From Escherichia phage 215Ecol030PP: a stretch of 64,000 nucleotides of DNA. This document shows, in pieces, positions 38,887 to 40,674 of the stretch. The DNA is taken from sequence record PP328843.1; one strand, given 5' to 3'. Each line of letters opens with the position of its first letter. Position 1 is the first letter of the stretch. The position numbers and the translations under genes are program-made. The notes under the pieces are model-generated. The model did not search any database. It saw only the letters and a program-made list of their open reading frames with translations, and was not told the DNA's origin.

Positions 38887-39196
38887 TGCGGCAACCTTGT
38901 CGGGGTTCCACCTGCTAAGGCAAGTGTTTGTACGAAACGCCGGGATTCGAACCCGGTTATTAAGCAGTTGACGCTACTCAATATTTTTAAAAGGCCATAT
39001 CTCGACCATATCCGAACGTTCCGTCAAAAACGCTACTCGGCTTATGGCAAAGATATTTCCTCGAATCGATAATTCGGTGCGCCGTTTCTGCTGTGATATA
39101 AGGGGGCATTAACAAAACATAAAGATTTATTAATGCCAGTCCTTAAACAGGGAACATCAGTCCGACGACTTGCCGGTAGCGACCCGGCTTCTTGTC
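38887..39196 (-). ncRNA. structured RNA region downstream of tRNA-Arg (positional equivalent of the T4 small stable RNAs)
   Basis: About 310 nt non-coding between tRNA-Arg and the terminator; tRNA-like T-arm CCGGG-TTCGAAT-CCCGG at 38941..38956 but no full cloverleaf. Confidence 0.35.
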
Positions 39197-39272
39197 TGGT
39201 CGAGGCAGTAGGGATCGAACCTACGACCCAGGACTTAGAAGGTCCTTGCTCTTCCTTCTGAGCTATGCCCCG
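39197..39272 (-). tRNA. tRNA-Arg (anticodon UCU)
   Basis: Hand-folded cloverleaf: acceptor CGGGGCA/TGCCTCG, anticodon loop CTTCTAA, T-loop TTCGATC, CCA encoded. Confidence 0.8.
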
Positions 39273-39276
39273 TAAT

Positions 39277-39352
39277 TGGGGTGACCGATGGGAGTCGAAC
39301 CCATGACTACGAGAATCACAATCTCGAGTTCTACCAACTGAACTACGGCCAC
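39277..39352 (-). tRNA. tRNA-His (anticodon GUG), no encoded G-1
   Basis: Acceptor GTGGCCG/CGGTCAC, anticodon loop TTGTGAT, discriminator C73, CCA encoded; base at -1 is U. Confidence 0.75.
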
Positions 39353-39466
39353 ATTAATACCTACTCCAACAATCAAGATGTCTTCACACGAAATTAAGAG
39401 AAGAGTGATCAGTTCAACCCCTATAATCGCGTCAAGTAGATATTAATGTGACAGTTGTCACAAATT

Positions 39467-39541
39467 TGGCGGACGTGATAGGATTCGAACCTATAACCAA
39501 TCGCTTAACAGGCGATCGCTCTGCCATTGAGCTACACATCC
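39467..39541 (-). tRNA. tRNA-Asn (anticodon GUU)
   Basis: Acceptor GGATGTG/CACGTCC, D-arm GCTC..GAGC, anticodon loop CTGTTAA, T-loop TTCGAAT, CCA encoded. Confidence 0.8.
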
Positions 39542-39545
39542 AAAT

Positions 39546-39632
39546 TGGTGGGGAGTGATGGAGTCGAACCACCCGAGTCGCAATGACAATGGATTTACAG
39601 TCCACACCGCTACCTCTACGGGATAACTCCCC
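39546..39632 (-). tRNA. tRNA-Tyr (anticodon GUA), long variable arm
   Basis: Acceptor GGGGAGT/ACTCCCC, anticodon loop CTGTAAA, about 14-nt variable arm, T-loop TTCGACT, CCA encoded. Confidence 0.75.
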
Positions 39633-39645
39633 TTAATTCTTAATT

Positions 39646-39720
39646 TGGTGGCCCTGGGTGGAATTGAACCACCATCTGGCGATTATGAGTCGCTTGCTTG
39701 AACCTTCCAGCTACAGGGCC
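39646..39720 (-). tRNA. tRNA with anticodon CAU (probably Ile, lysidine-type, as in T4; Met by naive reading)
   Basis: Acceptor GGCCCTG/CAGGGCC, anticodon loop CTCATAA, T-loop TTCAATT, CCA encoded. Confidence 0.7.
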
Positions 39721-39728
39721 AAATTTTC

Positions 39729-40214
39729 TTATTTTATGTAATATTTATTTAAAAACTTTCTAGCTTGAGTATGGCTAACATTTATAGCGTTTGCATAATT
39801 TTTAATAAAACCTCGTTCATCCATATTAAAATTTTCTAATATTTTTAATCGTCTAGTTATCTCATCTTGACTTAAGGTACTTGCATTATTTTTAGAAATT
39901 TTTTCTAAGGACTGTGCCGAGTGTTTTCGACCATTAAAATTAAAATTTTTAGATTTTGGAGGAAATCTAGCATTTAATCTCGCATCTTTTGTATTTTGAT
40001 TATTAGTTGCGCAATATATGTTATTTAATGAATATGGTCCTTTATCGCCGAAACGGCACATGCAGTATTCATGACCCTTTCTTCCACGCTTATCATAATT
40101 TCCCGTTGATTTCCACCAATGCAGCCATTCATCAAAAGTTAAATTCCATTCAATGTTTCTACGTATAGCAGAATTCCGCTGAGAAATATATTTTGCATAA
40201 TCTTCTTTCATCAC
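39729..40214 (-). CDS. hypothetical basic protein inside the tRNA cluster (segB position), possible DNA-binding/nuclease-like; family unresolved
   Basis: 161-aa ORF; no GIY-YIG or HNH motif recognised; Cys/His cluster GHEYCMCRFGDKGPYSLNNIYC and C-terminal helix-turn-helix-like tail. Confidence 0.45.
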   Translation of the reverse strand: MMKEDYAKYISQRNSAIRRNIEWNLTFDEWLHWWKSTGNYDKRGRKGHEYCMCRFGDKGPYSLNNIYCATNNQNTKDARLNARFPPKSKNFNFNGRKHSAQSLEKISKNNASTLSQDEITRRLKILENFNMDERGFIKNYANAINVSHTQARKFLNKYYIK

Positions 40215-40258
40215 AAATTTCTCTACTTATTCAATACACTGAGCTAAATCAGCAAAAC

Positions 40259-40348
40259 TGGCGGAGGCGATAGGATTTGAACCTATGAGTCGCCGGAGCG
40301 ACTGCCGGTTTTCAAGACCGGTGCATTAAACCACTCTGCCACGCCTCC
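40259..40348 (-). tRNA. tRNA-Ser (anticodon UGA), long variable arm
   Basis: Acceptor GGAGGCG/CGCCTCC, anticodon loop CTTGAAA, long variable arm, CCA encoded. Confidence 0.8.
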
Positions 40349-40350
40349 AG

Positions 40351-40424
40351 TCTCCGCGGCAGGATTTGAACCTACGACATTCTGCTCCCAAAGCAGACGC
40401 TCTACCAAACTGAGCTACACGGAG
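40351..40424 (-). tRNA. tRNA-Pro (anticodon UGG)
   Basis: Acceptor CTCCGTG/CGCGGAG, D-arm GCTC..GAGC, anticodon loop TTTGGGA, T-loop TTCAAAT. Confidence 0.8.
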
Positions 40425-40434
40425 TAAATTAAAT

Positions 40435-40508
40435 TGGAGCGGATAATGAGAATCGAACTCACATCATCAGATTGGAAGTCTGAGGTAATACCATTATACG
40501 ATATCCGC
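40435..40508 (-). tRNA. tRNA-Gly (anticodon UCC)
   Basis: Acceptor GCGGATA/TATCCGC, anticodon loop CTTCCAA, T-loop TTCGATT, CCA encoded. Confidence 0.8.
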
Positions 40509-40513
40509 AAATT

Positions 40514-40600
40514 TGGTGCGAGAAGTGGGACTCGAACCCACAAGGAAATCATTCCGCAGCATTTTAAGTGCTGTGCCTTTACCAATTTGGCCATTCTCGC
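40514..40600 (-). tRNA. tRNA-Leu (anticodon UAA), long variable arm
   Basis: Acceptor GCGAGAA/TTCTCGC, anticodon loop CTTAAAA, long variable arm, T-loop TTCGAGT, CCA encoded. Confidence 0.8.
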
Positions 40601-40601
40601 G

Positions 40602-40674
40602 CTGGGAATAAAGGACTCGAACCTTTGCATCCTGGAATCAAAATCCAGTGCCTTACCAACTTGGCTAATTCCCA
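40602..40674 (-). tRNA. tRNA-Gln (anticodon UUG)
   Basis: Acceptor TGGGAAT/ATTCCCA, anticodon loop TTTTGAT, T-loop TTCGAGT. Confidence 0.8.

Follow-up and report, generated by a model that had tools for sequence, protein, structure and literature searches.

The annotation of bacteriophage T4 places its tRNA and stable RNA genes in the order Gln, Leu, Gly, Pro, Ser, Thr, Ile, segB, Arg, rnaD, rnaC. This T4 unit is transcribed as a single precursor of ~1.75 kb that ends after the species I RNA; SegB-type homing shuffles this non-essential tRNA region, as in the SegB-driven replacement of the T2L tRNA region, where the preferred SegB cleavage site lies in the tRNA-Asn gene (PMC2330249). Here we describe the corresponding locus of Escherichia phage 215Ecol030PP (PP328843.1), analyzed within a 64,000-nucleotide (nt) stretch (hereafter the window, 64 kb), which encodes ten tRNAs including a tRNA-His whose gene lacks the G at position -1 (G-1). 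The locus resembles T4 in its Gln-Leu-Gly-Pro-Ser block, its Ile2-type CAU tRNA, its tRNA-Arg, both stable RNAs, and the position of the terminator, and differs from it in that T4 has tRNA-Thr and the GIY-YIG homing endonuclease SegB where the window has Tyr, Asn, and His tRNAs and an unrelated 161-amino-acid (aa) open reading frame (ORF). Closer still is the T2/T2L-type region (AJ880101; Brok-Volchanskaya et al. 2008, PMC2330249), which shares the gene order, a trna.1-like ORF, the rnaD/rnaC tail, and the flanks; however, the T2L entry annotates only nine of the window's tRNAs together with rnaD and rnaC, lacks both tRNA-His and the 114-nt leader that precedes it, and carries an extra ORF, trna.2, between tRNA-Arg and rnaD. 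The ten tRNAs, rnaD, and rnaC are ordinary and already annotated, and the missing G-1 is the notable part of the locus. G-1 is regarded as the main, near-universal identity mark of tRNA-His, the known exceptions having a changed discriminator, a changed synthetase, or Thg1, and E. coli histidyl-tRNA synthetase (HisRS) is described in the literature as G-1 dependent, with loss of G-1 cutting efficiency >100-fold.

The tRNA-His gene was read directly on the minus strand, where gtattaaT is followed at once by GTGGCCG and the gene closes with CGGTCAC-C-CCA (full form, GGTATTAAT joined to GTGGCCGTAGTTCAGTTGGTAGAACTCGAGATTGTGATTCTCGTAGTCATGGGTTCGACTCCCATCGGTCAC-C-CCA, with the -1/+1 boundary at the junction). 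The acceptor stem was found to comprise 7 bp, G1-C72 to G7-C66 and including G4.U69, with C73 as the discriminator; position -1 (39353) is T and position -2 is A. The register, and with it the assignment of the first G to +1, is set by U8, A14, G18G19, the T-loop, and the 4-bp D stem; the alternative, in which the first G would be G-1, was excluded by U8, A14, G18G19, and the D stem, and the 3′ side then reads C72, C73, CCA. This direct reading agrees with the original prediction of a tRNA-His with a standard 7-bp acceptor, C73, and U at -1, and re-examination revealed no G-1. When compared with E. coli hisR (~80% identity), the phage gene has the same GUG anticodon, an identical anticodon loop, C73, the pairs G1-C72, U2-A71, and G3-C70, and an encoded CCA. 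The two differ at the 5′ end, where hisR encodes a G-1 that pairs with C73, leaving an 8-bp stem after RNase P cleavage, while the phage gene has U-1 and no extra pair; in every phage copy, the alignment to hisR leaves out the first nucleotide of the 77-nt query and begins at position 2. The G4.U69 pair was also considered as a special compensating element and rejected, as the same stem occurs in G-1 host-type copies (L004 and L014) and in cellular genes (L226 and L228), and PKO111 has G4-C69.

To place this gene among other phage tRNAs, tRNA-His genes were gathered from viral contigs and phage genomes and re-called with ARAGORN, with distinct genes counted including their three upstream bases. 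Position -1 was T in 22/22 distinct genes from 35 phage loci. These derived from (i) Straboviridae (Tequatro-, Karam-, Jiaoda-, and Moonvirus, Serratia phage CHI14, and Gualtar-, Gelderland-, Angel-, and Chrysonvirus); (ii) Vequintavirinae (ChuuTotoro and CR9, with a near-identical copy in the unclassified Pectobacterium phage POP18); and (iii) phage T5 and 155-kb mycobacteriophages. The recurrence of the same state in 35 loci excludes a sequencing or strain oddity as the cause of the missing G-1. G-1 was present in all 20 distinct host-like solo copies and in six cluster copies from other, unrelated viral contigs, as well as in the tRNA-His of Arthrobacter phage Mimi. A pattern scan of viral contigs with the anticodon and T-loop returned mostly non-tRNA matches and few extra cluster copies of tRNA-His. 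On the cellular side, the T(-1) form of the tRNA-His 5′ half had no match among 185,579 bacterial and archaeal species represented by one genome each; when the -1 constraint was lifted, three matches to the 5′ half were detected in this set, and both of those that are tRNA-His genes carry G-1. Similarly, the host tRNA-His gene was matched in all 5,426 complete E. coli genomes (5,423 of them at ≥99% across 77 nt including G-1), and the phage form was found in none of them. As judged from these comparisons, the missing G-1 is a conserved, phage-restricted hallmark of a large tRNA-His lineage and not a peculiarity of the window. We found no description of a G-1-less, C73 phage tRNA-His in the literature searched, although older T5 papers may contain one. 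Two unclassified viral contigs (L174 and L218) each carry two tRNAs with a GUG anticodon, one of which is a normal G-1/C73 tRNA-His; the second has an unrelated acceptor stem without C73 and may have another identity.

Alignment of 16 distinct tRNA-His sequences of the phage lineage revealed that 98.8% of stem cells are paired and that 12 of the 21 pairs have changes on both sides, a level of pairing reached by 0/500 shuffles and compared with 29-51% in slid controls. U-1, G1-C72, U2-A71, G3-C70, and C73 were invariant in this alignment. These patterns indicate that the phage tRNA-His is under clear selection as a folded tRNA and, by this comparative test, is functional. The -1 base of the non-His tRNAs in the same clusters was found to be T in 55%, A in 27%, C in 17%, and G in only 2 of 285 distinct genes, a pattern that supports the view that phage tRNA clusters generally avoid G-1; such avoidance has also been described for horizontally acquired tRNA arrays (PMC6582537). 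The near-absence of G-1 fits selection for unambiguous RNase P cleavage across phage clusters, and the invariance of U-1 in tRNA-His, among sequences that are not independent, hints at an extra constraint on this one position.

The spacer upstream of tRNA-His (39353-39466) was found to be structured. Its predicted fold has an energy of -32.7 kcal/mol (z-score -4.4), with 0/200 shuffles as stable, and consists of (i) a small 6-bp hairpin at 39462-39447; and (ii) a large stem-loop with a 13-bp closing helix, in which 39446-39434 pairs with 39366-39354, ending at position -2 of tRNA-His. Pairing of U-1 with spacer nucleotide A20 is also feasible and competes with the small hairpin. Homologous spacers of 31-107 nt occur in other Straboviridae, always before tRNA-His and after Gln, Ser, or Asn. 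Their interiors are unrelated; the closing helix, AUUAAUAUUCAYUY / GAGUGAAUAUUGAU, is kept and usually pairs through U-1. In ten distinct versions of this helix, 97% of cells were paired and 4 of the 14 pairs were compensatory, with slid controls at 40-55%. Vequintavirinae have a hairpin in their Gln-His spacer, while the mycobacteriophage copies have a 1-nt spacer before tRNA-His and no helix; the leader is thus not obligatory for the U-1 state. Structured spacers are present elsewhere in these phage tRNA clusters too. The leader may be a processing element or a small stable RNA. Two other possibilities were tried and set aside: no convincing -35/-10 elements of a sigma-70 promoter were detected on the transcribed strand, and the end motifs were too AT-rich to inform on a dispersed repeat. 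Positions 39447-39462 also match the CRP core consensus TGTGA-N6-TCACA perfectly, as does no other site in the window (0.07 expected; at least one in 5/100 shuffles). This palindrome coincides with the small 6-bp hairpin of the leader, with the stem kept and the loop changed in phage REP2 and only the 3′ half found in Karamvirus spacers; the match is probably just an RNA hairpin, though it could be a protein-binding palindrome.

Phage T5 (NC_005859) provides a parallel to this arrangement. Its tRNA-His has U at -1 and -2, C73, and an encoded CCA, and is adjoined by an upstream RNA of ~110 nt, annotated as the stable RNA RNAIII (L229, 5284-5394), with a long closing helix up to -1 (a 15-bp terminal helix including U-1; z-score -3.8). 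The T5 tRNA-His nevertheless belongs to another sequence lineage with a different D-arm, and no sequence similarity between the leader and RNAIII was detected by blastn (best E-value 0.42) or nhmmer (no match). Homology at the sequence level was therefore rejected and the likeness is taken as architectural only.

The explanation that we favor, covering both the identity of the locus and the maturation and charging of tRNA-His, is probable as a whole and is modeled in part on T4. By that analogy, one polycistronic precursor would start upstream of tRNA-Gln and end at the terminator after rnaC, host RNase P together with endo- and exonucleases would cut this precursor into ten tRNAs and two small stable RNAs, and the CCA-adding enzyme would complete tRNA-Gln and tRNA-Pro, which have no encoded CCA. 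For tRNA-His, the leader helix would have to be melted or cut before cleavage because bacterial RNase P requires a single-stranded leader (RNase P literature); once this has happened, RNase P would cut the U-1/G+1 bond and release a tRNA-His with a 7-bp stem and no -1 nucleotide. Cleavage at the canonical site is expected because the shift to the -2/-1 site depends chiefly on the G-1:C73 pair, described as its most critical feature, with U-2 and G-1 as positive determinants (RNase P literature), and the gene has A-2 and U-1. The same literature bears out the earlier suggestion, made from the sequence, that RNase P would leave no G-1. Host HisRS would charge the -1-less tRNA-His poorly, its contribution would come only via the abundance of phage tRNAs, and it would be a dispensable accessory. 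We lean slightly toward canonical RNase P cleavage yielding such a -1-less, weakly charged accessory tRNA-His, with the possibility that the leader helix could affect the timing or site of RNase P cleavage.

Several points weigh against a -1-less, weakly charged product. At least four phage lineages conserve the gene, with compensatory changes, yet a tRNA charged 100-fold worse would add little beside the host's single tRNA-His; this speaks for a real function and perhaps for a better charging route. C73 is listed alongside G-1 as a negative determinant of the canonical RNase P site (RNase P literature), and the leader is paired up to -2, whereas RNase P requires a single-stranded leader. Moreover, U-1 is invariant (22/22) while -2 and -3 vary, compared with T(-1) in 55% of the other cluster tRNAs. 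Finally, in the T5 GenBank record, tRNA-His is a 78-nt feature whose first base is U-1 and RNAIII runs to -2, a boundary that is possibly a convention.

Some of these points feed the main rival to canonical cleavage, in which the mature tRNA-His keeps U-1. The cut would then fall between -2 and -1, made by RNase P acting on the stack of leader helix and acceptor stem or by another nuclease, and the 5′-phosphate would be placed in the HisRS site, with reasonable charging in spite of the missing G. Such a product would be in keeping with the disfavoring of the canonical site by C73, with the spread of the invariant U-1 over Straboviridae, Vequintavirinae, T5, and mycobacteriophages, and with the T5 record; in most enterobacterial phage copies, U-1 forms the last A:U pair of the conserved closing helix stacked on G1-C72, and the -1 base is considered mainly to position the 5′-monophosphate, its recognition being largely non-specific (identity review). 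However, the G-1:C73 pair is the feature most critical for the cleavage shift, and no such pair can form between U and C. In addition, U is the commonest -1 base in these clusters anyway and G is avoided throughout them, the 22 sequences are not independent and may amount to 7-8 distinct leader contexts, the T5 boundary may only reflect annotation practice, and the mycobacteriophage leader is a single nucleotide that forms no helix. On balance, retention of U-1 appears doubtful.

The missing G-1 is not explained by any known G-1-less system, whether A73 with a co-evolved HisRS, Thg1 addition, or a G-1-independent HisRS. Some alpha-proteobacteria, protists, and C. elegans mitochondria likewise have tRNA-His with no encoded -1 G and no Thg1. 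What marks those systems is A73 and/or an altered HisRS that reads the anticodon, the alpha-proteobacterial type having A73, U72, and a co-evolved HisRS; the phage tRNA-His differs in that C73 and C72 are invariant (16 aligned) and that it would have to use a host HisRS described as canonical and G-1 dependent. A possible, if tentative, wider reading is that virulent enterobacterial phages (T4-like, rV5-like, and T5) and large mycobacteriophages share a tRNA-His design with C73 and with U-1 usually as the last pair of a leader RNA, the mature form bearing U-1 or no -1 base and working with a G-1-dependent HisRS and no Thg1, while the leader would act as a processing guide and be released as a stable RNA like T5 RNAIII. 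If true, this would mean that His-tRNA can be made in E. coli by a natural route that does without G-1, or that the phage tRNA is built so as to be told apart from host tRNA-His. A large family of functional-looking phage tRNA-His genes, with members in T5 and in close relatives of T2/T4, is devoid of an encoded G-1, though the host synthetase reportedly needs G-1 by >100-fold. The possible outcomes are (i) histidylation by an undescribed route; (ii) an unconventional U-1 5′ end; or (iii) a role beyond His codons, such as in an arms race with tRNA-cleaving defenses. Each would inform tRNA identity, RNase P site selection, and the engineering of orthogonal tRNA-His pairs.

Codon use and phylogenetic distribution were examined for their bearing on function. 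Among the 66 ORFs of the window (35% GC), the frequencies per 1000 codons were 31 for TTA, 24 for GGA, 24 for CAA, 13 for AGA, and 15 for ATA, and the cluster tRNAs appear to read A/U-rich codons that are heavily used by the phage. Tyr and Asn codons were found at 47 and 63 per 1000, respectively, and His codons at only 17, which fits His as the least needed member of the cluster. The His module is also its least fixed part, with ~200 records carrying the Tequatrovirus form at ≥95% identity versus 1,117 records matching the cluster query by megablast, and tRNA-His is absent from T4 and T2L. REP2 (L094, 2505-2630) keeps the 114-nt leader in full, together with the opening GTG of tRNA-His; the tRNA-His body is deleted, and a divergent tRNA-Arg allele is next. 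REP2 is thus a natural tRNA-His knockout with the leader retained. A preprint on AriB of the PARIS system describes Lys, Thr(UGU), and Asn(GUU) tRNAs as targets and considers both His(GUG) and Pro(UGG) probable minor ones; it also suggests that viral tRNAs may serve as competitors. The Tyr/Asn/His block, where T4 has Thr instead, may also replace host tRNAs attacked by defense nucleases, and AriB targeting is a plausible candidate reason for the variable Thr or Tyr-Asn-His block.

A mainly non-translational tRNA-His, serving as a decoy or competitor for tRNA-targeting defense nucleases or as a deliberately uncharged regulatory tRNA, would draw on these observations, as the block unlike T4 holds both Asn GUU, a secondary AriB target, and His GUG, His codons are scarce, and poor chargeability suits such a role. 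Nothing in our analysis shows a nuclease recognizing the window's tRNA-His, however, and its anticodon loop is identical to that of host tRNA-His. The gene also retains C73, the CCA end, and all canonical tRNA features, as in an aminoacylated tRNA, and its T5 counterpart with a changed anticodon is an effective amber suppressor (GenBank note). Because this suppressor form is effective, the T5 tRNA-His body must be processed, charged by some synthetase, and used by ribosomes. We therefore regard a decoy or regulatory role as improbable. Much the same distribution data could be taken to mean that the gene is a neutral or decaying passenger, its G-1 lost by mutation, that homing-endonuclease-driven shuffling carries along, given the patchy presence of tRNA-His among Tequatrovirus genomes, its deletion in REP2, and the non-essential, SegB-shuffled nature of the region (PMC2330249). 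The compensatory stem pairs, the intact state of all universal tRNA positions, and the occurrence of the same U-1/C73 state in T5, rV5-like and T4-like phages, and mycobacteriophages make a passenger very unlikely.

Post-transcriptional addition of G to the phage tRNA-His was likewise found to be unlikely. A tblastn search with a Thg1 query, validated by its matches, identified 127 phage records, many annotated as tRNA-His guanylyltransferase. Leading genera were Bacillus, Mycobacterium (11 records only), Caulobacter, Erwinia, and others; Escherichia, Klebsiella, Shigella, and Enterobacter were not among the ten Thg1 genera listed, despite hundreds of genomes in the collection, although rare exceptions are possible. 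E. coli is not known to have a Thg1 or TLP. Addition of G-1 by a Thg1-like 3′-5′ nucleotidyltransferase, templated by the conserved C73 as in some archaea and consistent with both these phage genes and the viral homologues in a published Thg1 phylogeny, is extremely unlikely given the absence of the enterobacterial phages from the listed genera, the 11 Mycobacterium records with Thg1 versus 160 matching a query containing the window's tRNA-His, and the otherwise near identity of T4 relatives with and without tRNA-His. The Thg1-like records included jumbo phages of Yersinia, Erwinia, Burkholderia, Caulobacter, and Xanthomonas as well as some 112-kb mycobacteriophages.

The layout of the whole locus was determined with ARAGORN, Rfam, and alignment to annotated relatives. 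Across the 64-kb window, ARAGORN called ten tRNAs and no more; all lie within 39197-40674 on the minus strand, and their minus-strand 5′ to 3′ order was found to be Gln(UUG), Leu(UAA), Gly(UCC), Pro(UGG), Ser(UGA), the 161-aa ORF, CAU, Tyr(GUA), Asn(GUU), the 114-nt spacer, His(GUG), and Arg(UCU). Nine of the ten score 60-74 bits against Rfam RF00005; tRNA-Tyr, with its long variable arm, gave only a weak sub-threshold match to the tRNA-Sec clan. Eight of the ten encode CCA. The features, in order of transcription, are as follows.

40601..40674, minus strand: tRNA-Gln (UUG); ARAGORN, Rfam 67.4 bits; U1-A72; no encoded CCA; abuts tRNA-Leu with a 0-nt spacer
40514..40600, minus strand: tRNA-Leu (UAA); ARAGORN, Rfam; CCA encoded
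40435..40508, minus strand: tRNA-Gly (UCC); ARAGORN, Rfam; CCA encoded
40350..40424, minus strand: tRNA-Pro (UGG); ARAGORN, Rfam; no encoded CCA; 1 nt before tRNA-Ser
40259..40348, minus strand: tRNA-Ser (UGA); ARAGORN, Rfam; long variable arm; CCA encoded
39729..40214, minus strand: 161-aa ORF between tRNA-Ser and the CAU tRNA, about where T4 has segB
39646..39720, minus strand: CAU tRNA of Ile2 (lysidine) type, expected to read AUA; ARAGORN, Rfam, E. coli tRNA-Ile matches
39546..39632, minus strand: tRNA-Tyr (GUA); ARAGORN; long variable arm
39467..39541, minus strand: tRNA-Asn (GUU); ARAGORN, Rfam
39353..39466, minus strand: 114-nt structured leader, candidate processing element or small stable RNA; fold and comparison
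39277..39352, minus strand: tRNA-His (GUG); ARAGORN, Rfam; G1-C72, G4.U69, C73, CCA encoded, T at -1 (39353)
39197..39272, minus strand: tRNA-Arg (UCU); ARAGORN, Rfam; CCA encoded
39076..39195, minus strand: rnaD homologue (species II stable RNA), 85% to T4; T4 and T2L annotated features aligned
38931..39069, minus strand: rnaC homologue (species I stable RNA), 97.8% to T4; contains the tRNA-like T-arm GGTTCGAATCC
38857..38880, minus strand: intrinsic-terminator-like hairpin of 10 bp (7 G-C) with a T run, at the end of the tRNA/stable-RNA transcription unit

The locus is almost certainly a Tequatrovirus transcription unit for tRNAs and stable RNAs, of the T2 type. By megablast, a 1,961-nt query was matched over 100% of its length at 97-98% identity by Escherichia phages ECO78, F26, and REP1, and the cluster was 95% identical to those of T2 and T2L. 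The annotation of REP1 (OQ174500) lists the identical ten tRNAs, REP1-type genomes show no difference from the window that matters, and many deposited Tequatrovirus genomes already carry annotations for the whole cluster with its ten tRNAs, ORF, and two stable RNAs. The proposals made beforehand by hand-folding held up on this wider view: the ten tRNAs, their identities and order, and the intervening ORF were all recovered; the CAU tRNA, thought probably to be Ile, has as its best E. coli matches genes annotated as tRNA-Ile (81.6%) and is labeled tRNA-Ile_CAT in the near-identical REP1; T4 does carry Thr and is devoid of Tyr, Asn, and His, as proposed; and the ~310 nt after tRNA-Arg, suspected of lying at the position of the T4 small stable RNAs and noted to include a T-arm, align with rnaD and rnaC.

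The 161-aa ORF shares 97% aa identity with T2L trna.1 and belongs to phrog_16521, a PHROG family with function unknown. It starts at a GTG codon, while T2L annotates 133 aa. No match to it was detected in Pfam, NCBIfam, or PDB sequence searches, and a single-sequence AlphaFold2 model was unusable (predicted local distance difference test score [pLDDT] of 38). Some relatives' records carry the unverified label of putative homing or HNH endonuclease; a Cys/His/Asn-rich stretch, GHEYCMCRFGDKGPYSLNNIYCATNNQN, has by eye the look of a degenerate HNH motif, with no support from profile libraries or PDB sequences. Among the tRNA genes themselves, tRNA-Gln is joined directly to tRNA-Leu (0-nt spacer) and tRNA-Pro is separated from tRNA-Ser by 1 nt. 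The Gln-Leu and Pro-Ser pairs resemble the tight dimeric tRNA precursors of T4.

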